Source: an uncultured Chlamydiae bacterium | Lineage (GTDB): Bacteria > Chlamydiota > Chlamydiia > Chlamydiales > JAJFMA01 | Direction: 5' to 3' | Assembly: GCA_963713615.1 (NCBI GenBank) | Contig: CAVQMM010000001.1 | Location: 2,720,001 to 2,784,000, forward strand | Length of the DNA: 64,000 bases | In this document: positions 4,908 through 42,593 of the stretch, in pieces | How the letters are laid out: each line of letters starts with the position of its first letter | How positions within the stretch are numbered: the first letter of the stretch is position 1 | Program-made: the position numbers and the translations under genes | The notes under the pieces: model-generated | The model's input: only the letters and a program-made list of their open reading frames with translations | What the model was told of the DNA's origin: nothing | Databases searched by the model: none

Positions 4908-5597
4908 GAGGTAATTGCAGAAGTCCGATTTCCGAAGTCAATTCCTGAAACTCGAATACAATCGAAGAGAGAGAGAAGCGATTCCCTTCCTAGGCCCGAA
5001 GGGTCGATATTGCAACAGGCCAGGGCATCGCCCCATAGGCCTCAACCTAAGCCTAACAATCGTATCTCGGCGCGCAGCGCTTTGGAGTGCGGTCGCTTGC
5101 GACCGCTTTGGGTTCCTTGCGACGGTCGTGTGCAACGGCATTACTATAATTCCCTAAGGGTAAAATAGTTAGTACATGCAGCCTTCGACGAATCCATACA
5201 ATGCCGTTTAGCATTGCCGTCCCAAGGAACGAAAAGCGGTCGCAAGCGACCGCACTCCAAAGCGCTGCGCGCCGAGATACGATTGTGAAGTCCTAAGTCA
5301 TTGAGATATAAGCTCAAAAGACCTGTTAGGTTGAGGCCTATGGGGCATCGCCCTGGTATACGCCAGGATAGGGTTTCGCAGTCTGAAAGACTGCCACAAG
5401 ATGCCGGTTTGCACACACCATTTATGCATGCTTTCTATGGCAGTCCTTCGAGGCTGACAGGAAATATCCCTTGGCCTGTTGCAATATCGACCCTTCGGGC
5501 CTAGGAGGGAGTAAGGGCCTGTGTCTCCAGGCCAGATAGTGCCATGCCATCTGAGTTCTCTAGAATTGCCTTCTCGCAAAAAAAGGTAACATTTTTT
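4908..5597. mobile_element. Composite MITE family C, copy 1 (right end missing), carrying a nested MITE
   Basis: Starts GAGGTAATTGCAGAAGTCCGATT like the 29372 copy and is similar to it up to AAAGGTAAC; internal inverted arms GGCCCGAAGGGTCGATATTGCAACAGGCCA. Confidence 0.8.
5034..5342. mobile_element. IS4/IS231-like MITE family B, copy 1 (309 bp)
   Basis: Perfect 17-bp TIR CATAGGCCTCAACCTAA; 11-bp TSD GGGCATCGCCC (5023-5033, 5343-5353); internal 54-bp inverted repeat 5056-5109/5233-5286. Confidence 0.9.
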
Positions 5598-20812: not shown

Positions 20813-20972
20813 GGCCTTATTCACCTTTGCGGTCAGTTTTCGGTCGACTGCAAAAGGATCGTCTGTCGCGTTTTGCTCCTCGGACATAGCTGGCGCTATG
20901 CCCTCGCCACAAACCACGACATCCGACCTTTTTCGTCCGACCGAAATTCTGACCGCAAAGGTGAACAAGGCC
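20813..20972. mobile_element. MITE family A, copy 2 (reverse orientation)
   Basis: Reverse complement of the 1241 copy; perfect 8-bp TSD CTTTTTGG. Confidence 0.92.
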
Positions 20973-25737: not shown

Positions 25738-28700
25738 TTAGGGTGAGACGGTTCGCAACGGACTGCGTTTTTCATTTTCTCGGTCACCAAGATTACCATA
25801 ACGGTGGTAGTCAATACTAATCGAAAGTTCGCGCAAGTGATGTAATAACTCCAAACGCCCTGAAGAAAAGACGGGGGCGATCGCTATACGGGCTCCCATT
25901 TCAGCAAGTCCAACTCGAAGTTTCTCGGATGGAGGCTGAAGTAACCTAACCCGCACGTGGGGAATGGCAGCCATGCGCTGAAGAAAGGCTTCGTCAGTTT
26001 CAAGAGTAGCCTCGATCGAGAGCGTAACATCGGAACTGATTTCCAATTTCGCTCCACAAATCCTTGCTGCGGCACAAACACGCAAGTAACCGATCGCTTG
26101 ATCATTGGCTTGTACGCGTAAGATGACGTGGCGTGGTCTATAGGTAAATAAGTTATCTTCACCTTGGATGCGGCTGAAGTCGCAAGCTTTAGAAAATAGC
26201 TGCTTCCAGAAGTGTGCATAGCTGCTTAAGCTGGCACTCCAAACGGCTATATCGTCAGGCGATAGATGCTTTTGTAGGTCGGGCAGAGAAAAAAAATCTT
26301 TCTCTTCGGGTAGGCCAGACTGCTCTGCTTTCATAAAGTTGATGAGATAATTGGGTCCACCGGCTTTGGCTCCTGGACCAAAACTACTGTCTTTACAGCC
26401 ACCAAAAGGCTGGCGCTGAACGATAGCACCCGTGATGCCACGGTTGACATAGAGATTTCCTGCATCAGCACGCTCGATCCAATACTGCTGTTCGCGTTCA
26501 TCTAGGCTGTGTAAACCAGAGGTTAGGCCATAGGGGGTTCCGTTAGCCAATCTGATCGCTTCATCGAGTGAATCTGCCCTCATTAAGGCTAGAACGGGAC
26601 CAAAAAACTCGGTTTGATGAGTAAAGCTGCCAGGTTTCACACCCATTTTAATGCCTGGTGACCACAACTGTGGATTCTGTGAGTCTTGACGGGGTTGAAG
26701 AAGCCACTCTTCGCCTTCTTCAAGTGTTGTGAGCGCGCGTAACAGCGCACCACTTGCAGGGCGAATCAAGGGGCTCAGTCGCGTCTGAAAATTCCATGAA
26801 GAGCCAGCAGCCCAGCTAGCAGCAGCATCGCGCAGTTGTCGTCGGAATTGTGGGTCGTCGTATACCTCGGCTTCGCAAATCAATAAGCTACATGCACTGC
26901 ATTTCTGACCTGCATGTCCAAAGGCTGATTGAATGACATCCCGAATGGCTAGATCACGATCGGCCATGCAACTGACAATCATGGCATTCTTACCGCCGGT
27001 TTCAGCAAGCAGGTCAAGGCCAGGCCGTAAGCGTAGCAGATGACGCGCAGTCTCCGTAGCGCCTGTGAGCACCACGACAGCAACTCGCGAGTCTTGAATA
27101 AGGCGGCTACCAACAGGATCATCCTCACAAGGAATAAAATGCAGCACATCACGACTAATGCCACCTTCCCAAAAGGCATCAGCAACAATATTGCCTACGA
27201 CAATAGCTTCTGGAGCTGGCTTAAATAAGACTGCATTACCCGTTGCTAAAGCCGCTGCTATGCCCCCAACAGGAATAGAACAGGGGAAATTCCAAGGTGG
27301 AGCTATGACAACGATCCCCTTTGCGGACCACTGAACGTTGCTTATTTCGTCTAATGAGATCATCTCGCGACGATAGTATTCCACAAAATCTATCGCTTCT
27401 TGAATTTCGATGTCAGCTTCAGCAGCGACTTTGTTGCACGTGAAAATCATGGCTTCCATGAGTTGTGCACGATGACAACGTAGGGCTTGAGCAACATTCC
27501 AGAGGACTTCCGACCTCTCATGAGTCGCGAGCGCTGACCAATTGAGTTGAGATCGTGATGCTGTATTCAGGGCAGCATCGACATCCTGCCAGGTAGCCAT
27601 TTCTACAGGGGTCGTTGGTTTGGGCTTATGTTCAGCAACAATAGTCTCTAGCCACTTTCGATTTGCGGGAAGAGCCCAATCGGTATCTGGTTCATTTGCA
27701 AAAGGCGATTGGAGCGAAGGTTTCAGAGGGCTCCTCTGCCGATTCTGCTGCCGACGGACATCACTCGAGACGCTATCTGCCTCAGTGCATGAGTTACGAA
27801 ATAGCGTTGCCTGATCTTGCCATGCATGAGATCCAGGATTAAGCCCAAAGGCATGCCTGAGGAAGTTTTGTGGGGCGGTATTTTCGTCTAATCGCCTGAT
27901 GAGATAGGCGATGGCATTTTGAAATTCAGCCTCACTGGCAGCCGGGCAGTACAGCAACATATCGCCGGAAACGTTTTGCACAGCGCGTCGGATATGATCG
28001 GCCATACCTTCAAGCATTTCAAAACAAACTTCTTTTTCGAGACCATTCTCTTGTCTAAGCAATAAGGCGAATGCAATATCAAAGAGATTGTGACTTCCAA
28101 TGCCCAGATGCACCGCACGAGCATGCTCAGGCTTCATACCGTAAAGAATCATGCGTTTGAAATTGGCATCCACCTCACCTTTGTCACTGTAGGGAGCTTG
28201 CTGCCAGCCATGCATAGCCGCTGTAACCTGCTCCATAGCGAGATTAGCTCCCTTAACAATGCGTATTTTAATAGGCGCGCTCTTAGCTGCCATTCGTTGA
28301 ATTGCCCATTGCGTGAGTTTTTGCTGCACTGCAAACGAATCAGGAATATAAGCCTGCAGCACTATGCCTGCTGATAGATCAAGAAATTCTTCTTCACCGA
28401 GTACTCTACAAAATAATTCTACGGTCAATAGCAGGTCGGAGTATTCCTCCATGTCGAGATTGACGAACTTCGGCACTTCGGTGCCATCGGGACGACGATA
28501 TAGATGCTTACGAGAGGCTCGATAGAGCTTTCGCAAAGGCTTTGAAAGTCTGTCTAGGGTATGCTCCCACCCGATAAGATTAATCTGACTGTAGATCGTT
28601 GAGACCTTTACGGAGATATACTCCACTTCAGGCTTAGCAAGATCGTCGAGGTACAGTTGAAGACGGTGCTGCGCTTCTTCTTCACCCAGCACGGCTTCAC

Positions 28701-29205
28701 CAAGATGGTTAAGATTTACGCGTACGCCCTGCTGACGTCGCTGACGCATGTGTTGGGCCAATAACGCTGGTTCAGCGGGAAGGATGACTCGAGACATTTC
28801 CTGACGCAGCAGCCTTTTGACGAGCGGCACAAAGAGACCAGGCAAAAATCGGCCAAACCGGCGAAAGAGGTGAATGCCGGTTCGTTCTAGTAGAGGCAAA
28901 AAATGCGGCACACCAAATTTATCAATAAGATAGGTCAATTGATCTGCAATGCGATGTGGGTCATCACTTCGGAAGCATTGATCCGTCATGCTAGTAGTGA
29001 AGGCCTTGCCCAACGGGTCCTCCATCATGCGCGCCAATTGCCCCTGAACTCGCCGCTCATCGGCTGTCTGGATCTTATTGGCCTCCTGCAAAAGAGAAGC
29101 GGCTAAAGTTATCGCCTCGTCGCATCGCTGAGTCATGGTTCGCGAGGATCTCTGAGCATGAGAGAACAAACGCATGGCAGCGCTCTGATTTTCTTGCTGA
29201 TTCAT
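25738..29205 (-). CDS. putA: Bifunctional proline dehydrogenase / P5C dehydrogenase
   Basis: NLDMEEY, RIVKGAN, YLIRRLDEN (PRODH); PWNFP, ETGGKNA, GQKCSA, EFFGP (ALDH). Confidence 0.93.
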   Translation of the reverse strand: MNQQENQSAAMRLFSHAQRSSRTMTQRCDEAITLAASLLQEANKIQTADERRVQGQLARMMEDPLGKAFTTSMTDQCFRSDDPHRIADQLTYLIDKFGVPHFLPLLERTGIHLFRRFGRFLPGLFVPLVKRLLRQEMSRVILPAEPALLAQHMRQRRQQGVRVNLNHLGEAVLGEEEAQHRLQLYLDDLAKPEVEYISVKVSTIYSQINLIGWEHTLDRLSKPLRKLYRASRKHLYRRPDGTEVPKFVNLDMEEYSDLLLTVELFCRVLGEEEFLDLSAGIVLQAYIPDSFAVQQKLTQWAIQRMAAKSAPIKIRIVKGANLAMEQVTAAMHGWQQAPYSDKGEVDANFKRMILYGMKPEHARAVHLGIGSHNLFDIAFALLLRQENGLEKEVCFEMLEGMADHIRRAVQNVSGDMLLYCPAASEAEFQNAIAYLIRRLDENTAPQNFLRHAFGLNPGSHAWQDQATLFRNSCTEADSVSSDVRRQQNRQRSPLKPSLQSPFANEPDTDWALPANRKWLETIVAEHKPKPTTPVEMATWQDVDAALNTASRSQLNWSALATHERSEVLWNVAQALRCHRAQLMEAMIFTCNKVAAEADIEIQEAIDFVEYYRREMISLDEISNVQWSAKGIVVIAPPWNFPCSIPVGGIAAALATGNAVLFKPAPEAIVVGNIVADAFWEGGISRDVLHFIPCEDDPVGSRLIQDSRVAVVVLTGATETARHLLRLRPGLDLLAETGGKNAMIVSCMADRDLAIRDVIQSAFGHAGQKCSACSLLICEAEVYDDPQFRRQLRDAAASWAAGSSWNFQTRLSPLIRPASGALLRALTTLEEGEEWLLQPRQDSQNPQLWSPGIKMGVKPGSFTHQTEFFGPVLALMRADSLDEAIRLANGTPYGLTSGLHSLDEREQQYWIERADAGNLYVNRGITGAIVQRQPFGGCKDSSFGPGAKAGGPNYLINFMKAEQSGLPEEKDFFSLPDLQKHLSPDDIAVWSASLSSYAHFWKQLFSKACDFSRIQGEDNLFTYRPRHVILRVQANDQAIGYLRVCAAARICGAKLEISSDVTLSIEATLETDEAFLQRMAAIPHVRVRLLQPPSEKLRVGLAEMGARIAIAPVFSSGRLELLHHLRELSISIDYHRYGNLGDRENEKRSPLRTVSP

Positions 29206-29371
29206 AACCTCTTCTGGGGTTTGTTTCCTTAATACGGCAGTGTAACAGGAGGATTAGGATTTTTACCACAGAGGACACAGAGTGCTCTGAGATAGGAGAG
29301 AGAGGAGGGATTTATTTTTTTTTATTTAATAGATGCCCATGGGGTCCATTAGTGTCCATGCTGTCCATTAA

Positions 29372-30123
29372 GAGGTAATTGCAGAAGTCCGATTCTCCGA
29401 ATTCAATTTCCTGAAAATCGGATGCCGGTGAAGAGAGAGTCATTCCCTTCCCAGGCCCGAAGGGTCGATATTGCAACAGGCCATGGCATCGCCACATAGG
29501 CCTCAACCTAACAGGTCTTTTGAGCTTATATCTCAATGACTTAGGACTTCACAATCGTATCTCGGCGCGCAGCGCTTTGGAGTGCGGTCGCTTGCGACCG
29601 CTTTTCGTTCCTTGGGACGGCAATGCTAAACGGCATTGTATGGATTCGTCGAAGGCTGCATGTACTAACTATTTTACCCTTAGGGAATTATAGTGATGCC
29701 GTTGCACACGACCGTCGCAAGGAACCCAAAGCGGTCGCAAGCGACCGCACTCCAAAGCGCTGCGCGCCGAGATACGATTGTTAGGCTTAGGTTGAGGCCT
29801 ATGTGGCATCGCCATGGTATATGCCAAAACGGTTTTAGCAGCCTGTAGGGCTGCCATAAAGCGCATGCATAAATGGTGTTTGTAAACTGGCGTCTTGTAG
29901 CAGTCCTTCAGACTGCGAAATCCCTTCCTGGCATATACCATGGCGATGCCATGGCCTGTTGCAATATCGACCCTTCGGGCCTGGGAAGGGAGAAAAGCCT
30001 GTCTTTCCAGACTGGATAGTGCCATACCACTTAAGCTCTCTAGAATCGCCTTCTCACAAAAAAAGGTAACCTTTTTTCCCGAGAATCGATTCTCAAGGGC
30101 TCAAATAATTTTGCAATTACCTC
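29372..30123. mobile_element. Composite MITE family C, copy 2 (complete, 752 bp)
   Basis: 12-bp TIR GAGGTAATTGCA/TGCAATTACCTC; 5-bp TSD ATTAA; interrupts a 9-nt-period GTCCAT tandem repeat. Confidence 0.88.
29495..29803. mobile_element. IS4/IS231-like MITE family B, copy 2 (309 bp, inverted relative to copy 1)
   Basis: TIR CATAGGCCTCAACCTAA; 11-bp TSD TGGCATCGCCA (29484-29494, 29804-29814). Confidence 0.9.
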
Positions 30124-30344
30124 ATTAATGTCCATTTTTTCTGAAGCAAAAATGGACTTTATAGACAGTAATTGACCTTATAAACATTTATTAAACAAAA
30201 AAAATAAAAAACCTATCCAATGTTTCCTTCTTTTCTCCTATCTCTGTGCACTCTGTGTCCTCTGCGGTAAAAATCTTATTTCTCTCTCCTTTACAAAAAG
30301 CGACGCCTCTAGGTACCGTAGACGCATCTAAGAACGAGGACCTG

Positions 30345-31604
30345 ATGTTATTACGTATTTTACCGTTTCGTTTGCTATGTATTCTTCTGATGGCCTTTGG
30401 CAGTGCATGTGCTACTCCAGTACAAGTGGGTATTGACGTCCTCCTGAACGGCGAATACGACACCTTACTAAAGGGCAAGCGTCTGGGTCTCATCACCAAC
30501 CAAACAGCTCTCAACAGTCAGCGAATCCATACGATCGATTTATTGAAGTCAAACGCAAAAAAAAAGGGTTACCAACTCGTTGCATTGTTTGCGCCGGAAC
30601 ATGGGATTACAGGCGCAGCGTATGCATCTGCTAAGATTGCCGATGAAACAGATCCTGATGGTATTCCCATCTTTAGTCTTCATGGATCTTCCCACAGGCC
30701 TACTCCTGAAATGCTTCAAAAGATCGATCTGCTACTGTACGACATCCAGGATATAGGCTCTCGTTCCTATACCTTTGTATCGACGTTATTTTACGCGATG
30801 GAGGAAGCCGCGAAGCATTCCGTTCCTGTCATGGTTCTGGACCGTCCTAACCCTCTGAACGGCATCCTCGTAGACGGTCCAATTCTGGAGGAGCAATGGC
30901 GTTCCATTGTCGGCTATATCAATGTACCCTATTGTCATGGAATGACGGTTGGAGAATTGGCTTCCTATTTCAACAAAGAATACAACGTAGGGTGCCAGCT
31001 TACTGTTGTCCCAATGCGTGGATGGCGACGCGCCATGACCTTTCGTGACACAGGCCTTACATGGATCCCAACAAGTCCTAACATCCCTGAAGCGACTACT
31101 CCTTGGTTCTATCCTGCTACGGGAATTTTAGGAGAACTGCAGATCGTCAGCATTGGCATCGGCTACACACTGCCTTTTAAAGTCGTGGGAGCTCCTTGGA
31201 TCGACGCAGAGAGCTTTGCCGCCAAACTGAATGCCCAGAAGTTCCCTGGGGTTGCTTTTATTCCATTTCACTTTCGACCGTTTAGTGGTCGCTTTGCTCA
31301 AGAAGATTGTCACGGTGTGCTTTTGACCATCACAGACCCCCTACGATACAAGCCGGTGGAAACGCAGTACTTGCTAATTGGTATCCTTAAAAGTCTTTAT
31401 CCCGGGCCATTCGCGCATGCCCTAGAAGCCTCTAAGGGACGACGCGACATGTTCGCCAAAGTCAATGGCACCGACGAAGTGTATCGTATTATTAGCGAAG
31501 GTCAATATGTCGTTTGGCAACTCAAGGGTTTACATCAAAAAGAGCGCCAGGCCTTCTTGCAGAAGAGAAAACGATTCTTAATTCCCACCTACTCAGCTAC
31601 CTAA
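30345..31604 (+). CDS. Exo-beta-N-acetylmuramidase NamZ / DUF1343 family
   Basis: GLITNQT, LFAPEHG, YDIQDIGSRSYT, LDRPNP, HGMTVGELA, WIPTSPNIP; signal peptide; start at MLLRIL after GAGG. Confidence 0.88.
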   Translation: MLLRILPFRLLCILLMAFGSACATPVQVGIDVLLNGEYDTLLKGKRLGLITNQTALNSQRIHTIDLLKSNAKKKGYQLVALFAPEHGITGAAYASAKIADETDPDGIPIFSLHGSSHRPTPEMLQKIDLLLYDIQDIGSRSYTFVSTLFYAMEEAAKHSVPVMVLDRPNPLNGILVDGPILEEQWRSIVGYINVPYCHGMTVGELASYFNKEYNVGCQLTVVPMRGWRRAMTFRDTGLTWIPTSPNIPEATTPWFYPATGILGELQIVSIGIGYTLPFKVVGAPWIDAESFAAKLNAQKFPGVAFIPFHFRPFSGRFAQEDCHGVLLTITDPLRYKPVETQYLLIGILKSLYPGPFAHALEASKGRRDMFAKVNGTDEVYRIISEGQYVVWQLKGLHQKERQAFLQKRKRFLIPTYSAT

Positions 31605-33946: not shown

Positions 33947-34106
33947 GGCCTTGTTCACCTTTACGGTCAGAATTTCGGTCGGACGAAAAAGGTCGGATGT
34001 CGTGGTTTGTGACGAGGGCATAGCGCCAGCTATGTCCGAGGAGCAAAACGCGACAGACGATCCTTTTGCAGTCGACCGAAAACTGACCGCAAAGGTGAAT
34101 AAGGCC
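33947..34106. mobile_element. MITE family A, copy 3
   Basis: Near-identical to the 1241 copy; perfect 8-bp TSD TTCAATAG. Confidence 0.92.
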
Positions 34107-34311: not shown

Positions 34312-35754
34312 CTATGCTGCTAATGGAAGAACGGCTTTTTCGTTTGGCACAACCGTCAGTTCTGACATGCTACGACCAAGAACCTTGGCAGCACCAAGCC
34401 AACTAGCAATGGCCAGGATAATGATTACAGCGAGAAGTGGTACTCCGCCACCAATGGTTGCGAAGATCATCACTAGACCTTGGTGTACCACTGAGGCCAT
34501 CGATCTGCCCAAACGAGACCCCAGACCATCCACAGCGGCTTTACCCTGAGCCTTGATGTGAGATTCAAGAGGAATAAAGGCCAAGTCTTTACTGACGTCT
34601 AACAGAGAGTGCTTGCTGGCCCTGCCAGCACTGAATTGTACCGCTCCAACCATCACCGCAACAGTCATCAGAGTCGTGGTTTCAAATGGCAAGTATTCTC
34701 GCATTAATAAAAGCCCAAAGAAAACAACGCTACATCCCAGTAGGAAGATGGGGCTTATCATGGCTGTCTTGGTCCATCCAAAACGATCTAATAACGTGGG
34801 GGCAACCATTGCTAACAGGACTGTTAGTATTCCACATACCGTCGAAGTATGGCCTAAAAAGGTATTGTATTGATTGAAATCCGCATAGACCTCTTTGACT
34901 TCCGCCTTCCACACGAGTTCAAATAAGTTCATTACCAAATTGTAAGCAATAACCATCACAGCGAGACATAGAAGATGGCGATTCTGAAGGAGTTGATGCA
35001 GCTGTTGTAGGGCTCCCACGTTCATCTGATGCTTCGACGGTGATTTTCCAGCTTTGCCTAGTCCTACAACATAGGAACTCAATAGCCAGCGAAAGAGAAA
35101 AATTGTAGTCAAACATCCCGCGATGATAATTGTAGAAAGCCCATACACAGAGAAGTTGGGCATGACATTACCAACGAGGACAGAGACTTGCCCACCCACA
35201 GCAGCCCCTAAAGCACCTCCAATACGTACCCATGAATAGGATTTCTGCGCTTCGTCTAGAGGTGTAATTTCGTTTGCCAAGCTCCAAAAGATGACTGAAG
35301 TGACCATGCATGCCCATAGCTCACCGACGACAAAAAACAGAGAAAGTGTCCAATTGCGCATCATTGCTACAAAGCCCTTTAAACCCGTTGGAAGCAAGGA
35401 ACTGGCTGCCTCAGCGTAGCTCCGCGGTTCAATGATGTCGCGATAAGGGTAAAGAACGCAGGCGAAGAGAATAAAGAAGGCTAAGAAGCCTATGAGCAGC
35501 TTATAAATAACAGTGACTAGTCCTTGACGCTTTAGGGATGTACTAAACCACAGCGTTACTACACAGGTCAAAGGAAGCAACAACCACAGTTGAATAAATG
35601 GGATGACTTCAGCACCAGATCCTTCTGCTGTTATCACCAAAGCGTCTTTCATGGCGTGCAGTATGTTGTGAACGACACAAATGATGAAGAATATGATACT
35701 CATTAGTACCACTCTCTGACCGGATTTTTCTGCTGCTCCTTCAAAATTGGGCAC
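34312..35754 (-). CDS. Npt/TLC nucleotide transporter, divergent paralogue 5
   Basis: MKDALVIT, AEVIPFI, GELW, FWSLANEI, KAAVDGLGSRLG. Confidence 0.88.
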   Translation of the reverse strand: MPNFEGAAEKSGQRVVLMSIIFFIICVVHNILHAMKDALVITAEGSGAEVIPFIQLWLLLPLTCVVTLWFSTSLKRQGLVTVIYKLLIGFLAFFILFACVLYPYRDIIEPRSYAEAASSLLPTGLKGFVAMMRNWTLSLFFVVGELWACMVTSVIFWSLANEITPLDEAQKSYSWVRIGGALGAAVGGQVSVLVGNVMPNFSVYGLSTIIIAGCLTTIFLFRWLLSSYVVGLGKAGKSPSKHQMNVGALQQLHQLLQNRHLLCLAVMVIAYNLVMNLFELVWKAEVKEVYADFNQYNTFLGHTSTVCGILTVLLAMVAPTLLDRFGWTKTAMISPIFLLGCSVVFFGLLLMREYLPFETTTLMTVAVMVGAVQFSAGRASKHSLLDVSKDLAFIPLESHIKAQGKAAVDGLGSRLGRSMASVVHQGLVMIFATIGGGVPLLAVIIILAIASWLGAAKVLGRSMSELTVVPNEKAVLPLAA

Positions 35755-35782
35755 TTATTTGTCTTCCTCCCTCTACACTATA

Positions 35783-37255
35783 TTATGCGGCTGCTCTGAC
35801 AGCGTCAGAAATGTTCTTCTCATTATCTCCATCTGCCTGATCACTAAACTTTCCAAATTGAATCCCTAGGTACTTAACAGCACCAATCCACACCACCAGG
35901 GATGTCAGCAGAACTAGCCCAACCATCGGAATGCTATTTGAGATCGTGGTAAACATAATAATGAAGACCTGATGGAATCCTGCGGAAGCACACCGTCCAA
36001 GGCGAGAAAGACCACCATCTATCGCTGCTTTGCTTTTGAGCTTGATAGCTGGATCAACAGGAATAAAGGCCATGTCCTTAGTACCATCAAGGACCGAATG
36101 CTTGGTTACGCGTGCTACAATTTCCATTAGGCCCCCTAGGAGCACACCAATTGTCAGTAGAATACTGGCGTGCGTCGGGAAGAAGTCAGTAAGGTATAGA
36201 GCGGTAAGAAATGCAAATCCGGTAACAAGCAACGAAATTGGGCAGATCATGGCTGTCTTTGTCCATCCCAAACGTGCCAATATGCGGGGAAACATCGACG
36301 CTACAACAATGGAGCCAATGCCAATCACAATGGTGATGTATCCCAAGTAGCGATTATAACTGCTGAAATCGGAGAAAACGTGTTTTAGTTGATCCTTCCA
36401 CACCAATTCTCCTACATTCAAAACAAGATTATATCCCAGAACAATGATACCAATGCTCAGGAGATAAGGAGATCTAAAAATGGATGCCAAAGCTTCGATG
36501 AGCCCGTCTTTCTTCGATCTATCGCGCGCATTAGCTTCATGACGAATAACATCGTACTCGGAGCCTACAAGGATCTGGGTTGTCATCCGGTGAAAAAGCA
36601 CCAACATGCCCAGTCCCATTGCTAAAACGACTGCCATCAATCCATAAACGGACATTTCCACCGAAAGATCACCCGCAGCCAAGGGCACAAGACCTGCTAG
36701 AGTAGCTCCTAGGTTACCCCCCATCATGTACACCCCATAGGAACGTCTGGCCGATGAGAGGCTGGAAATCGTGTTAGCAAAGCCCCAAAATAAAACCGCT
36801 GTAACCGTTGAGGCCCACAGTTCACCAACCGTATAAAAAGCACTAAAGGTCCAATTGCGAATCATACCCACCATGCCGTGCAAACCAGAGGGCATCCAGA
36901 TCAAGGTATCGTTCGCAAATGCCTGTGGATGTAAAACATCGCGTAGTGGGTAAAGAACCAAGGCAAAAAGAGCGAAAAAACCGAGAAAACTGCCAACGAC
37001 CACATAGAAAAGTGTAATTTGATTGTAACGACTCGCTAGACGAGTAAAGGCCCATGTAACAAACAATGTTGCTGGAAGCATCATCCAAATTTGAATGAAG
37101 GGTATCACCTCGGTAGCCGATCCCTCAGCCGTGATCACTAAGGCATCTTTCATGTTGCGGATGATGGAATGGATAAAGCAGATGAGGAAAAATATGAGAG
37201 TCATGAACAAAGTAATCCTACAACCAAGGCCTAACCTGTTGCGGATCCGAATCAT
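35783..37255 (-). CDS. Npt/TLC nucleotide transporter, divergent paralogue 4
   Basis: RNMKDALVIT, GELW, FWGFAN, KDMAFIP, KAAIDG. Confidence 0.88.
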   Translation of the reverse strand: MIRIRNRLGLGCRITLFMTLIFFLICFIHSIIRNMKDALVITAEGSATEVIPFIQIWMMLPATLFVTWAFTRLASRYNQITLFYVVVGSFLGFFALFALVLYPLRDVLHPQAFANDTLIWMPSGLHGMVGMIRNWTFSAFYTVGELWASTVTAVLFWGFANTISSLSSARRSYGVYMMGGNLGATLAGLVPLAAGDLSVEMSVYGLMAVVLAMGLGMLVLFHRMTTQILVGSEYDVIRHEANARDRSKKDGLIEALASIFRSPYLLSIGIIVLGYNLVLNVGELVWKDQLKHVFSDFSSYNRYLGYITIVIGIGSIVVASMFPRILARLGWTKTAMICPISLLVTGFAFLTALYLTDFFPTHASILLTIGVLLGGLMEIVARVTKHSVLDGTKDMAFIPVDPAIKLKSKAAIDGGLSRLGRCASAGFHQVFIIMFTTISNSIPMVGLVLLTSLVVWIGAVKYLGIQFGKFSDQADGDNEKNISDAVRAAA

Positions 37256-37404
37256 ACACCCTCGTACGTTCTATTTAATTAACAAGCCTAACAATTCTCC
37301 ACCAATTTTAATACAATATACAATTAAAGTAAAGACAAACGAATTAAATCAAGAAGCGCATTGTAAATAACCAAACAACGTATAGACTACTAGTGACTAT
37401 TGCA

Positions 37405-38916
37405 TTAAGCTGCTTGTGCAAGGTTTTTGCAGGCTGAACTATTCTTAACAGACTGTTGGGTAAGATCCGCAAACTGATATCCCAGAGAACACGCAGAGAC
37501 AACCCACACAAAAATACAACCCGTTATAATGACGAAGATCATAGGCATACTTTGACCAAGGCTGCTAAAGACTATAATACATAGTTGTTGAACGATGGCA
37601 GAGCCCGAAATAGCTATACGAGATAACGCCCCATCAATGACAGCCTTGCTTTTGAGTTTCAACTCGGTCTCCAGGGGAATAAAAGCCAAATCCTTGGTTC
37701 CATCAAATACCGAATACTTCGTCATGCGCCCCAGAACTTCCATTAAACCACCGGTAAGAACAACAATACCTAGTATGGTGACCGACTCAAAAGGCAAGTA
37801 GCTGCCAAAGCAGAGTATACCGAAGAAACAGACACTTGCCACACCTGTCGACGCTGGACATAACATAGCGGTTGCAGTCCATCCCAAAGTATTTAGGATG
37901 CGGGGTAGAAAACCAGCCAAAATCATGGCTCCTACCCCAATGGCTGTGGTGGTATAGCCCAAATAGTTGTTGTAAGCATTAAAGTCCCCACATACTCGTT
38001 TGAGCTGATCTTTCCAAACTACCCCGCCAATACTATTCACAAAGTTAAAGGCAAAAACAATGACCGCTAGGCACAGAAGGTAACGATTGCAGATGAGCAT
38101 ACGAAGAGATACTAAAAGAGAAATTTTCTCAGGTTTTTCACTTGGATCTATCACCTGGTGAATACAATCATACTCCGATCCTATGAGAACATAACGGGTC
38201 AGCCATTGAAACACCGCTAACGAGACTAATCCGGAGACTATAATCACGACTAACAGGATATAGATCGATAGTTCGGGGGAAATTCCACCTACAAGAGGAG
38301 GGATCAGGCCCGCCATCGTAGCCCCCAGATTGCCACCCATCGCATAAAGACCATAGGATCGTTTAGCTTGTTGCAAGTTACTAATTGCATTGGCAAAGCT
38401 CCAAAAGAGAACGGATGTTACCATACTTCCCCACAACTCACTCATTGTAAAAAAAGCACTGAATGACCAATTACGTAACATGCCTACCAGGCCGCGCAAC
38501 CCATTCGGCAATTGAGCTGATGCACCCAAAGCAAACTCATGCAGATGTATGAAATCGCGTAGAGGATATAAAACGCACGTGAATACGACAAAGAAAGCTA
38601 AGAATCCACCCAACACCAACTGAAACAACGTCCTTTGACTATAGCGAGATGCCAAGTAGGTAAAGACCCAAGTAGCCAATAATGTTGCCGGTAGCAGCAT
38701 CCAAAGTTGAATAAAAGGAATGACCTCAACATCAGCCCCCTCAGCTGTTATAACTAGGGAGTCCTTCATAATTCGCAAAAGTGAACGAACAATGCAAAGC
38801 AAGAAGCAGATTAGAGTCATCGCAAGGGTGATTTGACATTCGAGACCTAACCTCTGACGAATCCAGTTCAATAGGTTCCCGAAATTGGTTCCAATAAATC
38901 TAGCCACAACCACCAA
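37405..38916 (-). CDS. Npt/TLC nucleotide transporter, divergent paralogue 3
   Basis: MKDSLVIT, SELWGS, KYSVFDGTKDLAFIPL; start uncertain. Confidence 0.88.
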   Translation of the reverse strand: MVVVARFIGTNFGNLLNWIRQRLGLECQITLAMTLICFLLCIVRSLLRIMKDSLVITAEGADVEVIPFIQLWMLLPATLLATWVFTYLASRYSQRTLFQLVLGGFLAFFVVFTCVLYPLRDFIHLHEFALGASAQLPNGLRGLVGMLRNWSFSAFFTMSELWGSMVTSVLFWSFANAISNLQQAKRSYGLYAMGGNLGATMAGLIPPLVGGISPELSIYILLVVIIVSGLVSLAVFQWLTRYVLIGSEYDCIHQVIDPSEKPEKISLLVSLRMLICNRYLLCLAVIVFAFNFVNSIGGVVWKDQLKRVCGDFNAYNNYLGYTTTAIGVGAMILAGFLPRILNTLGWTATAMLCPASTGVASVCFFGILCFGSYLPFESVTILGIVVLTGGLMEVLGRMTKYSVFDGTKDLAFIPLETELKLKSKAVIDGALSRIAISGSAIVQQLCIIVFSSLGQSMPMIFVIITGCIFVWVVSACSLGYQFADLTQQSVKNSSACKNLAQAA

Positions 38917-39018
38917 AGGCTAATTAATTTAGTTTTATAAGTTACAATTTTATATAATTAAAATCAATGCATTTTAACACTCATAAGTTAAATTAAATAA
39001 TAAATACTTTCAAAACTA

Positions 39019-39248
39019 GGCTCTTGGAAGGAATTGGGGTGCTTTGGAATCACAATCGTCAATCGTGGCGAAGCGCTTTGGAGCCCCAACCGACTGCGTC
39101 GCCAATATCCGAAAGTAACGCTAAAAAAGCCCCACGAGCTTCTATGCGCTCGCGCTGCGCGCCGAGTGACGATTGTGACTCCAAAGCGTAGCACATCTAT
39201 TCGATGGTTTGTGGCAGCAAAAAGCTCCCCCAATTCTTCCCAAGAACC
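39019..39248. mobile_element. MITE with ISL3-like ends carrying REP fragments
   Basis: Ends GGCTCTTGGAAGGAATTGGGG / CCCCCAATTCTTCCCAAGAACC; inner IR GCTTTGGAATCACAATCGTC / GACGATTGTGACTCCAAAGC; no clear TSD. Confidence 0.7.
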
Positions 39249-39275
39249 TTATAAAATCCTGTTTTTCATCCGCTG

Positions 39276-40862
39276 CTAGGTAACAGCGGGAGCTTGAGTT
39301 TGCGACTCGGGTTGCACTGGATGTTCTAGGGCAAGAGCAGCAGCCACAGCCTCTGCTTCATGTTCCTCTCCGATCTGTTCACCCTTCTTCGCTACGAGAG
39401 CATGAAGCTGACGTCCCAAGGACTTGGTAGCAATGATCCAGGCCACAATAACAATTAATAGAATCGCGGCAACATAGGGGGCGCTGGCGCTGAGCGTGGT
39501 GAAGATCAATAATAGCCCTTGATGCAGGAGAGACCCTCCAGACTTGCCAAAACGTGAACCAACACCATCAATAGCCGCTTTACCTTTCAACTTATATTCG
39601 TGAGGCAAGGGAATAAAGGCCATCTCTTTGGTACCATCAAAAACGGAATACTTACAGCCTTTGCTTAAGGAATTCTGAGCTCCCCCAATAAAAACGATAA
39701 GGGCCAAGGGAGTAGCACCAAAAATCCAGGCGCCTTCGATCGAGATAAGATCTTTAAAAAACAGGAGGGTAAAAAAGCCGATACCTGTAATCAAAATAGT
39801 CATCGGAGTGATCAGAGCAGTAAAGGTCCAACCCATCTTTTTGATCAAGAAAGGCAGGAAAAAGCAAAGAAACAAAGAAATCAAGCCTACACCCGTGGTA
39901 ACATTACCCAGGTAATTATTATAATCAGCGAAGTTTGGATAGAGTTGCTTAAGCTGATCCTTCCAAACAACCTCAACGAGATTAATCACCAGGTTATATC
40001 CCACCACCAAAGCGGCAATACAGAGTAGGTATTTGCTTTGGCTGAGCTGTGACATGCTCTCACGCATCGATAGTTTCTGCCGCTGCTCACCTTCGAGAAG
40101 ACGACGACGACCATGAAGCGCATCATAGTTGCGATTATTGAGAACATAGATGTTCATCCAACGAAAAATAACCATCGTAGCAAAGCCACTGACCAGAATA
40201 AGAGTCATCAGAATGACTACAGAATCTCCAATTCCAGCATCTGCAACCATTGAAGGAACCTGACCAGCCAGAACAGCTGCAAGATTACCGCCAGCACTAA
40301 GAACTGCGTAAAAGCGTCTTGCATCACCGATGCGGGTCACCTCATTAGCAAACCCCCAGAATAGCACCGTTAGGACGATACATCCCCAAAGTTCCGATAC
40401 CACATATAAGCTGGTAAAAGTCCAATTTCGCAGCATGGAAACGACCCATCGAAAGCCACTCGGAAGGATGTTCTCTAAAGCTTCGGCCGTTTCATGGGGA
40501 TGAAGGGCATCCTGATTGGGATATAGCACGAAGACAAAGAGAGCAAAGAAGACCAAAAAGCCACTGATAATCATGTAAAAAACGTTTTCTTGACTATAAC
40601 GGCTGGCAAGCTTGGTATAGAGCAAGGTGAGTAGTACGGCCATAGGAAGCATTGCCCAGACCTTAATGAAGGGAATAACCTCTGCGCCTGAAGACTTTGC
40701 AGTGACTACCAGAGCATCCTTCATGTTGCGTAGGACGCTATAGTTAAAACAAATGCAGAGCAGCATCAGGAACATCGGCAATACCATGCGATTTTCCTCC
40801 CTGCGAATGGGCCAGAAAATTCCTCTTAAAGTTCCGAACTGAGGCTGCTGAGTTTGTTCCAT
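39276..40862 (-). CDS. Npt/TLC nucleotide transporter (canonical chlamydial type)
   Basis: FGTLRGIFWPI, AEVIPFIKVW, SELWG, NLVEVVWK, GKAAIDGVGSRFGKSGG. Confidence 0.93.
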   Translation of the reverse strand: MEQTQQPQFGTLRGIFWPIRREENRMVLPMFLMLLCICFNYSVLRNMKDALVVTAKSSGAEVIPFIKVWAMLPMAVLLTLLYTKLASRYSQENVFYMIISGFLVFFALFVFVLYPNQDALHPHETAEALENILPSGFRWVVSMLRNWTFTSLYVVSELWGCIVLTVLFWGFANEVTRIGDARRFYAVLSAGGNLAAVLAGQVPSMVADAGIGDSVVILMTLILVSGFATMVIFRWMNIYVLNNRNYDALHGRRRLLEGEQRQKLSMRESMSQLSQSKYLLCIAALVVGYNLVINLVEVVWKDQLKQLYPNFADYNNYLGNVTTGVGLISLFLCFFLPFLIKKMGWTFTALITPMTILITGIGFFTLLFFKDLISIEGAWIFGATPLALIVFIGGAQNSLSKGCKYSVFDGTKEMAFIPLPHEYKLKGKAAIDGVGSRFGKSGGSLLHQGLLLIFTTLSASAPYVAAILLIVIVAWIIATKSLGRQLHALVAKKGEQIGEEHEAEAVAAALALEHPVQPESQTQAPAVT

Positions 40863-41006
40863 AAATCCTCGAGAAAAACATTCTACACCAAGTATACCGC
40901 GTCAAACACATTTGACGAAGAAACAAGAAAAAAGCCCTTGTCGAATCGCCAGCCTATATAACCGCGCGTGGTATAGCTGGGGCCAACAACAGTAAATATT
41001 GTGTCA

Positions 41007-42593
41007 TCACACTACAGCCTCTTGCCCCTCTATTGCATCTTTACTGCTAGGGGCCAGAGCCGGTCTAGCTGGCGCTGCAGCAGCAACGCCTTTTTCAGTA
41101 AGTTCATTAAAACGTTTGCCCAGGGCATACACAGCAATAATCCACAAAACAATAACACCCAAAAGCCAAGCAGCAACATAAGGGGCACTGGCAACAATCG
41201 TAGAGCAGCAAAGCAGAAGCCCTTGATGAATCACCGAACCACCCGATTTACCCAAGCGAGAACATACACCATCAATAGCTGCCTTTCCCTTGAGCTTGCA
41301 TTCACTGCTGAGAGGAATAAAAGCGAGCTCCTTGGTTGCATCGAATACCGTGTATTTTGCACCTCGGCTAACACAATTCTGCATCGACCCTAAAAACACC
41401 ACCAATGCCGGTGTGCTAATTCCAGTCAACATGGGTAGCACAGCACACATTCCCTCTTTACAAAAGAAGAAATAGAAGAAAAGGATGCTTGTGAATAGCA
41501 ATGCTACAGGAGTGATCAAGGCCGTGAAGGTCCAGCCAAAACGTCGAATAAAATTCCCGGTCCCTACCAACGCAGTTAAAGTTGCTAGGACACCGATGAT
41601 CGCCATGACCCCGTTCATGTAGAAAGTGTAATCGTGGGCACTGGGATAGAGATCGCGCACCTGATGCTTCCAGACGACCTCGACAAGATTGATCACGATA
41701 TTGTAGCCCACGACAATGATAGCAAGGCACAAGAGATAAGGCGAACGCACCAAATAGGCAAAACTGTCACGCATGGACAGCTTACCGCGAATCCCTTGAT
41801 CCTCAATAGCCTTGTCAGCGTCGTAATACAAAGGATCGGTCAAGACACTGCAATGCATCCAACGAAATAGGCCCGCCACAACGATACCACTCATCAAGAT
41901 AAGACCAATCTGCAAAAACAACCAGCGATCCCCTTCAGGGATGAACGGCAATGGAATCTGCGAACCGTAACTAATGAGTGCCATAGAAGTCAGACCGGCC
42001 ACGGTACCAGATAGGTTAGCTCCGAGGCCAAAGAGACCATAAAAGCGTTTAGCTTCCTCAATACGTGTAATCTGGTTAGCAAAGCCCCAAAAGAGCGTAA
42101 ATACAATGATAGCGCTCCACAACTCCGCCATGACATAGAAGCTGGTAAAGGTCCAATAGCGACACATGGAGATGAACCCACCCAATCCCAAAGGCAGCCG
42201 CTCCTGCAACCAGTCGGCGAGAACATGAGCATGAAAGTGCTCACGGAAGGGATATAGAATGGTGACAAACAACAAGAAAAAGCCTAGGAAGAGTGCCATC
42301 ATGATGTAAAAGACGATCTCGCGTGACCAACGATTGGCTAAGCGAGTGTAGACGAAGGTCAAGACGACAGCCATGGGAAACATGACCCATACCTTGATGA
42401 AGGGAATCACTTCCGCTCCCGACGACTTCGCCGTAACGATGAGGGAATCCTTCATGGTACGTAGAACATTATAATTGAAAGATATGAAGAAAAAGATAAG
42501 AAGCATTGGTACTAGCTTCTTAAGCTCAAAGCGATGGATTGGCCATAAGAACCCTCTCCATCTTCCAAATTCTGGGTGAACAGGCTGTGACAT
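41007..42593 (-). CDS. Npt/TLC nucleotide transporter (canonical chlamydial type)
   Basis: FGRWRGFLWPIHRFELKK, PFIKVW, FYVMAELW, NLVEVVWK, SRLGKSGG. Confidence 0.93.
   Translation of the reverse strand: MSQPVHPEFGRWRGFLWPIHRFELKKLVPMLLIFFFISFNYNVLRTMKDSLIVTAKSSGAEVIPFIKVWVMFPMAVVLTFVYTRLANRWSREIVFYIMMALFLGFFLLFVTILYPFREHFHAHVLADWLQERLPLGLGGFISMCRYWTFTSFYVMAELWSAIIVFTLFWGFANQITRIEEAKRFYGLFGLGANLSGTVAGLTSMALISYGSQIPLPFIPEGDRWLFLQIGLILMSGIVVAGLFRWMHCSVLTDPLYYDADKAIEDQGIRGKLSMRDSFAYLVRSPYLLCLAIIVVGYNIVINLVEVVWKHQVRDLYPSAHDYTFYMNGVMAIIGVLATLTALVGTGNFIRRFGWTFTALITPVALLFTSILFFYFFFCKEGMCAVLPMLTGISTPALVVFLGSMQNCVSRGAKYTVFDATKELAFIPLSSECKLKGKAAIDGVCSRLGKSGGSVIHQGLLLCCSTIVASAPYVAAWLLGVIVLWIIAVYALGKRFNELTEKGVAAAAPARPALAPSSKDAIEGQEAVV

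Follow-up and report, generated by a model that had tools for sequence, protein, structure and literature searches.

Successive site-specific insertions as the probable origin of a six-layer stack of MITEs and hairpin repeats between putA and namZ in a chlamydial genome

How do several families of repeats come to lie one inside another within a single intergenic region? The question is raised by a locus in the genome of an uncultured Chlamydiae bacterium (G000; 3.97 Mb, 47% GC, three contigs, assembly 99.1% complete), in which we analysed a window of 64,000 nucleotides, C1:2720001-2784000. A putA-like and a namZ-like gene, divergent from each other, flank a stack of six layers (Table 1), which are, from the outside inward, doublet D, the short GGAC/GTCC repeats F, MITE C, hairpin doublet E, MITE B and REP doublet A. 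A preliminary description of this DNA had recognized a stack of four families. The nesting is real, and the inverted arms of D, the TIR and TSD of C, the GTCCAT tandem, B and the REP pair all lie where that description placed them, but families E and F had been missed. The namZ-like ORF likely starts at an in-frame ATG at 30345. A 118-aa ORF at 29669-30025, which spans three layers and matches nothing in Pfam or NCBIfam, was treated as spurious. Rfam gave no match over 28900-30600 at E values up to 1, and a promoter scan was at chance level (2 found, 1.8 expected).

Table 1. Layers of the stack and the neighbouring genes, with positions in the window.
Feature	Position	Strand	Remarks
putA-like gene (Pro_dh + Aldedh)	25738..29205	-	left neighbour, reads away from the stack
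D left arm, CACAGAG-type repeat	29249..29335	+	
F left half, GTCCAT units, 9-10 nt period	29336..29371	+	includes left TSD of C, 29367-29371
MITE C, 752 bp here, 432 bp empty	29372..30123		TIR GAGGTAATTGCA; IS1182/IS5-like ends
E left arm, outer part	29444..29494	+	terminates in the B target and left TSD, 29484-29494
MITE B, 309 bp	29495..29803		17-bp TIR with IS231-type end signature, 11-bp TSD
A doublet, REPIN-like	29551..29781		two GGAG-footed hairpins, 29579-29601 and 29731-29753; 123-nt spacer
B right TSD (29804-29814) and inner part of E left arm	29804..29826	+	
E spacer, 102 nt	29827..29928		either orientation in other C copies
E right arm with empty B target	29929..29991	-	
C right TSD (30124-30128), last GTCCAT unit, inverted decayed right half of F	30124..30184		
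D right arm	30185..30284	-	
namZ-like ORF, right neighbour	30246..31604	+	mechanical GTG start inside D arm

The D arms pair over 29249-29299/30234-30284 (88% complementary) and 29306-29369/30151-30214 (73%). The GTCCAT tandem, described as having a 9-nt period and being split by C, is present with a period of 9-10 nt, and it is the left half of an inverted doublet belonging to family F itself. MITE C has TIRs at 29372-29383 and 30112-30123 and ATTAA on both sides. Both its span and the ATTAA duplication stand as described, although the 752 bp are made up of C (432 bp), B (309 bp) and the 11-bp TSD of B, and a 5-bp TSD is a rarer form than the usual 4 bp. The "hairpin of C" that was said to host B belongs to the separate family E. 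The size of B and its 11-bp TSD were both confirmed at the locus, where the 17-bp TIR is perfect, and the inverted pair of REP-like hairpins inside B is likewise present, within an 86-nt inverted repeat (29551-29636/29696-29781). The TSDs, which had been taken to give the insertion order, do place F before C, and E and C before B, but the order of D and F has no such support, nor is there a TSD for the capture of A by B, of E by C or of F by D. Elsewhere in the window are a truncated second C[E[B[A]]] copy (4908-5500), five TLC ATP/ADP transporter genes in tandem (34312-42593), and copies at 1241-1401, 20813-20972 and 33947-34106 of "G", an element roughly 160 bp long that has inverted ends and 249 motif matches genome-wide and is found inside genes and C-type shells. 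The tandem transporter genes suggest that the host is an environmental chlamydia.

Searched against the genome with BLAST, the region returned 1475 hits, and coverage, which is 1 in the flanks, rises stepwise at the layer boundaries; each layer has tens to hundreds of copies. B and C were classed as MITEs on TIRs with target duplication, many copies (80 pairs of B, 105 of C) and no transposase. Empty versions, which the preliminary description had expected if the layers are independent, occur elsewhere: C lacks B in 32 of the 63 full-length backbones, many in tandem arrays, D lacks C in 35 of 40 doublets, and 43 A doublets are free, five of them with a diverged B-like spacer. B outside the E site is rare, though. 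Among three genomes of the same genus, two (G001 and G003) have a putA-namZ gap of about 200 bp without the stack, that of G003 containing one CACAGAG unit; the third, G002, has another gene between putA and namZ and a D-like hairpin upstream of putA. The whole composite found weak matches in 11 of 40 relatives.

A stack of repeats could in principle be an assembly artefact of collapsed repeats, and no public contig spans the whole locus: the contigs from four low-coverage public DNA runs do not, and none of the public runs listed holds half of the region. Nevertheless, both TSDs close exactly. Cutting C out in silico leaves D and F folding as one 279-nt hairpin (-71.7 kcal/mol, a value without shuffle comparison), like the six D doublets that, by reading, hold F without C. 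The C/E/B/A junction types recur in the four runs, which come from four studies, as does a junction of IS66 in A, and one public contig that extends from putA into the D arm matches the assembly exactly. In public contigs the repeat layers stand at far higher depth than the flanks. We give an assembly artefact next to no credence.

We found 283 C ends, forming 105 pairs, with a TSD of 4 bp in 40, 5 bp in four and none in 31. GGAC or GTCC stood at a fixed distance from 200 of the 283 ends, compared with 1.0% of random and 1.2% of non-ORF background positions; 83 were out of F phase. The 63 full-length backbones, which are those of 93 pairs that passed a length filter, had a mean identity of 92.6%, a figure lowered by inverted spacers. 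For B, 229 TIR matches yielded 92 pairs, 60 of them of 309 bp, and the TSD was 11 bp in 69 of the 80 main-family pairs, with none matching in 11. B ends abutted the E motif in 180 of 197 cases, whereas 0.14% of random positions and 0.16% of non-ORF positions did so; part of the 17 B ends outside E look like chance TIR matches. The idea that the elements use each other as targets therefore emerges stronger than it was first put, because insertion is base-exact and genome-wide.

Other elements land in the same sites, with IS families assigned by NCBIfam. For IS66, 34 of 36 ends lay in the A loop with an 8-bp duplication, and all six full-length IS1634 copies had their downstream end in an A arm. 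B', a sister family of B that itself carries A, had 24 of 27 ends in A and a 10-bp TSD in two pairs. All nine left junctions of IS110 lay in E. The preliminary account had included neither these targeting IS families nor the cognate genes considered below. Two further fragments, at C1 1137410-1138825 (inside C) and 1197432-1198333 (inside a D doublet), we take to be like a group II intron reverse transcriptase.

From these positions we consider it quite probable that the stack grew by successive site-specific insertions, each transposon-derived element entering a pre-existing hairpin repeat. Each jumping element lies almost only in a hairpin repeat carried by another, and therefore the elements likely build each other's landing sites. 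Random insertion, with selection sparing only the hits in dispensable repeats and gene conversion homogenizing the copies, would also account for left ends of C that avoid ORFs of at least 200 aa (140 of 141 lie outside them), as well as for chimeric C copies and mismatched TSDs, which point to recombination. It would not be expected to produce base-exact positions far above the non-coding background, nor five element families at five different positions in A and E, and C-type ends in named non-chlamydial loci were in F phase in 0 of 103 cases among the matches listed. We regard random insertion as very unlikely. For pairs of C and B that lack a TSD, putative recombination between copies is a suggested explanation.

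In the stack itself, C is found in F flanked by its target duplication, and B in E inside C with an 11-bp duplication. Within C, B occupies four arm and orientation states (L+ 11, L- 11, R+ 5, R- 5). The preliminary description had cast the elements as carriers of each other as well, and C does carry E, and B carries A, but the carriage of B by C found no support because the four states of B are spread across different C subfamilies. Might a filled C[B] nevertheless move mainly as one composite, with B riding in C? B does lie within the TIRs of C, many filled C copies have intact TSDs, and L+ and L-, both common, could include some composite copies. Yet a single C haplotype is represented by an empty form and by forms with B in the L+, L- and R+ states, and none of the C subfamilies lacks B, although the copies of B are 99.7% identical on average (32 copies). 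Two B copies share one C, and B sits in different arms at three loci that share flanks. We consider predominant composite movement improbable. With two variable columns, B is too uniform for a haplotype linkage test of composite movement. We infer instead that B entered existing C copies independently, many times and recently, which would make C the target of B rather than its carrier.

The three loci with common flanks (C copies at C1 309695, 656695 and 3645703) share about 130 bp on the left and 40 bp on the right, and therefore a further enclosing repeat exists. Mostly empty C copies also form four head-to-tail arrays (C1 476526-478848, 1173286-1175460, 2273505-2277245 and 2600817-2603064) of 5, 5, 8 and 6 starts, with a period of 473 or about 455 bp and a constant short F-type linker; these likely arose by tandem amplification.

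Are the hairpins inside B and C captured REP-like doublets? A arms number 365, of which 194 lie in B-type shells, 20 in C-type shells and 151 free. The A repeat flanks a 176-aa RAYT gene (C1:3256585-3257115) on both sides, with an arm identity of 51/54, and the protein scores 83.9 bits against NF047646 (cut-off 80). The foot of A is GGAG, not the canonical GT[AG]G (Quentin 2018, PMC6006769, in the part available). E has 287 arms, 88 filled by B, 185 empty and 14 other. A C end is near 230 of them, 14 are at or near a Y1 gene, and the remaining 43 look, for the most part, like broken C copies. An array of 11 E arms lies downstream of a 150-aa IS200-like gene (C1:3243391-3243843), with three more nearby, and the whole E doublet of C matches the doublet beside this gene at 185 of 225 positions. 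The IS200-like protein scores 57.6 against NF033573 (cut-off 55) and 22.4 against NF047646 (cut-off 80), and so is not a RAYT; its motif, Y---Q--HH, is that of subclass 1.2. Further Y1/HUH genes with palindromic repeats of their own lie at C1 3872945-3873400, 1465781-1466737, 1580931-1581920 and 1042747-1043175 (16, 17, 27 and 9 matches).

If the A and E hairpins were native subterminal structures of the parent IS, the genome would be expected to look as it does in one respect, since every B shell that we found in it contains some cargo and every C shell some hairpin. However, the same shells hold different hairpins: B-type shells also contain another hairpin or F, C-type shells also contain A or a further hairpin, and in other chlamydiae B- and C-type shells hold D-, A- or E-like hairpins. 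Both A and E flank Y1 genes, A also occurs free, and the ends of two full-length relatives show, by reading, neither hairpin. A native origin of the hairpins is therefore most unlikely in our estimation. Under the preferred reading, each MITE would have captured one REP-like doublet once and then amplified it; the spread of C would have made most E sites, roughly one in three of these would then have been occupied in a recent burst of B, and IS66, IS1634 and B' would have come to use the A arms within B as sites. A further hairpin family, "I" (121 motif matches, e.g. C1 1755746-1756135, 285329 and 1725255), occurs as cargo of B-type shells and surrounds free A doublets.

The outer layers have partners of another kind. 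D comprises 135 arms and 40 doublets of varied content, five with paired C. It brackets, in inverted orientation, a 130-aa GxxExxY gene (TIGR04256; C1:1855144-1855536; arm 47/53 identical). F forms 163 arrays of three or more units, compared with 1-3 in shuffles, and brackets two four-helix-bundle genes (TIGR04258 plus TIGR02436). Neither the D nor the F partners are HUH/Y1 transposases. We scored the same pairing in other chlamydiae, where there was no ORF to score at 9 of 29 GxxExxY loci and 1 of 13 four-helix loci, and three four-helix loci were left out (two own, one duplicate). A D-type motif lay in the flanks of 12 of the 20 scored GxxExxY genes, and inverted flanks were found at 11 of 17 compared with 0 of 29 control ORFs; at least two F-type pairs accompanied 9 of 12 four-helix genes. 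In all three counts kin are not independent. Cross counts between the D-type and F-type motifs were 0/20 and 0/12. A control on neighbouring ORFs was positive for the D motif at 12 of 29 and is contaminated, because such ORFs share the flank of the gene; the inverted-repeat and cross-family controls were used in its place. Judging from these sequence associations, D and F probably arose, as REPIN-like doublets, from the arms that flank the GxxExxY nuclease gene and the four-helix-bundle genes, respectively, and the two kinds of protein may act on their repeats. Four-helix-bundle proteins are not known to have a catalytic role. A second GxxExxY gene (C1 1921739-1922134) is flanked by inverted tandem arrays of a different repeat, of the CACACGGA type, which has 155 motif matches in the genome.

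Which enzymes moved B and C? The preliminary description had suggested a search for autonomous genes with matching ends. Full-length IS with B- or C-type ends were found only in other genomes. Several searches of the genome itself found no transposase with B or C ends: at the 12 loci inspected, PF01609 matches had other ends, PF05598 had no matches, relaxed TIR pairing returned no full-length element, and tblastn of both partner proteins had no match. The movers of B and C are therefore deduced from other genomes, where the TIRs of full-length elements are 2-4 bases off those of B and C. We propose that an IS1182/IS5-like transposase moved C in trans and an IS4-family transposase moved B, and that the assembly no longer contains either gene.

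For B, the TIR fits the IS231 signature CAT-7-AA-2-TAA with a 10-12 bp direct repeat (Table 1 of PMC2266710), and the end pattern occurs in 32 of 351 genomes of the phylum. One element of 1746 bp (G149:C22:2693-4438) has B-type ends enclosing a 488-aa IS4 transposase, which scores 184.4 bits against NF033592 (cut-off 115) and in whose sequence we read a YREK motif, Y-2-R-3-E-6-K. Its TSD is absent and it does not lie in E. A search of 220 genomes turned up homologs of the transposase in five; all five loci have at least one signature end, and two have both. Two long B copies considered as autonomous candidates (2612 bp and 2.2 kb) were rejected, their extra DNA being an inserted IS66 or IS1634.

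For C, a scan of the collection located C-type ends in at least 122 stretches across many phyla. In a Syntrophobacterales MAG, an element of 1510 bp with C-type ends and a 4-bp TSD encodes a 365-aa protein with DUF772 and DDE_Tnp_1, both over the Pfam cut-offs; it scores below the NCBIfam cut-offs for IS1182 and IS5 (NF033551, 68.8 of 270; NF033581, 63.3 of 140). Within the phylum, 12 of 301 genomes encode homologs, and 17 of 25 loci have an end pair like the TIR of C, 12 of them with a 4-5 bp TSD. C-type ends in F phase are also present in G002, G003 and G251 and at three of four chlamydial MAG loci, but seven further chlamydial genomes that we sampled lack them, and none of the full-length C-type elements found lies in F repeats. 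A count of local stems in C-type MITEs of other phyla gave a weak result, 14 of 53, so we do not claim that such MITEs generally carry REPs. A separate case is G281, which has six full-length copies of a C-related IS (L232, L236, L241, L243, L245 and L247), all at one conserved repeat site with a 5-bp TSD; it is an autonomous, repeat-targeting member of the C-related group.

The insertion of IS into REPs is already established, and the chain described here is lineage-specific and made of parts of known kinds. In the parts of the sources available, REP-targeting IS include ISRm22 (IS4 family), ISPsy8, ISPa11, ISPpu9/10 and ISRm19 (Tobes and Pareja 2006, PMC1525189), and IS1397 and IS621 (PMC3184786). 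Our elements share with these the base-exact insertion into palindromic repeats, an IS4-family example and hybrid copies with mismatched direct repeats (PMC1525189), but they are mostly non-autonomous, their targets lie inside other MITEs, and seven element families and three repeat families are linked in a chain. In the accessible main text of PMC1525189, "IS66" and "MITE" each occur 0 times. B resembles the IS231/ISH8 subgroups in its CAT-7-AA-2-TAA ends, 10-12 bp direct repeats, the YREK of its partner and extra DNA inside the ends (PMC2266710, available in part). It differs in being a 309-bp derivative with a REP-doublet cargo and a REP-like hairpin target, in a host outside the described range, IS231 being almost confined to the Bacillus cereus group (De Palmenaer 2008, PMC2266710). 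C is like IS1182/IS5-like elements in its short TIRs, 4-5 bp TSD and a partner of 1.45-1.6 kb with DUF772 plus DDE, and unlike them in that this partner falls short of both family cut-offs and that the preference for GGAC repeats is seen only in some chlamydial genomes.

A likewise has the properties of a REPIN/RAYT system, namely dispersed non-coding inverted doublets and the same repeat around a single-copy Y1 gene (class 2 RAYT). Unlike in such systems, MITEs account for the abundance of more than half of the A arms and of most E arms, the foot of A is distinct, the E partner belongs to an IS200-like subclass and the D and F partners are non-HUH. REPINs have been described as slow and MITEs as fast (bioRxiv 10.1101/2021.07.10.451892, in the part available). 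The pairing of D with GxxExxY recalls that of NTS repeats with SsnA GIY-YIG single-strand nucleases (Chenal 2025, PMC11893778, in the part available), where a dispersed repeat also goes with a small non-HUH nuclease gene; here the profile is PD-(D/E)XK and the pairing is known from sequence. In the open-access literature we found no report of MITEs carrying each other's targets, nor of repeats around GxxExxY or four-helix genes.

A further, more speculative model is that these gene-less elements form a self-feeding loop, in which C, on inserting into F, would bring in E; B, on inserting into E, would bring in A; B', on inserting into A, would add further A; and an older, F-carrying B variant would have brought in the target of C itself, with F and D as non-RAYT REPIN-like systems run by four-helix-bundle and GxxExxY proteins. 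We offer it tentatively and think it somewhat less likely to be right than wrong. Closure of the loop is suggested by one-ended remnants: among 10 rows read, B-type ends followed by F units occurred six times, three with C within 170 nt, and the other end was missing in all. These remnants, which show the reverse nesting with C inserted in three, lie at C1 110509, 1305042, 1369090, 1739247, 2270929 and 3729739.

Nothing that we found indicates a benefit of the stack to the host. B- and C-related sequence amounts to 107,647 bases, or 2.7% of the genome, and likely promotes rearrangement. The locus offers exact natural targets for five transposase families (IS4, IS1182/IS5-like, IS66, IS1634 and IS110), so that hairpin recognition can be tested with short substrates, and candidate DNA partners for two uncharacterised families, GxxExxY and the four-helix bundle with TIGR04258 suffix. 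MITEs with a captured doublet can drive REP-like copy number, and REP counts therefore need not reflect RAYT activity. If the loop is true, each element would make the next one's safe landing sites, and this could explain how MITEs reach about 2.7% of the genome of an intracellular bacterium without hitting genes.
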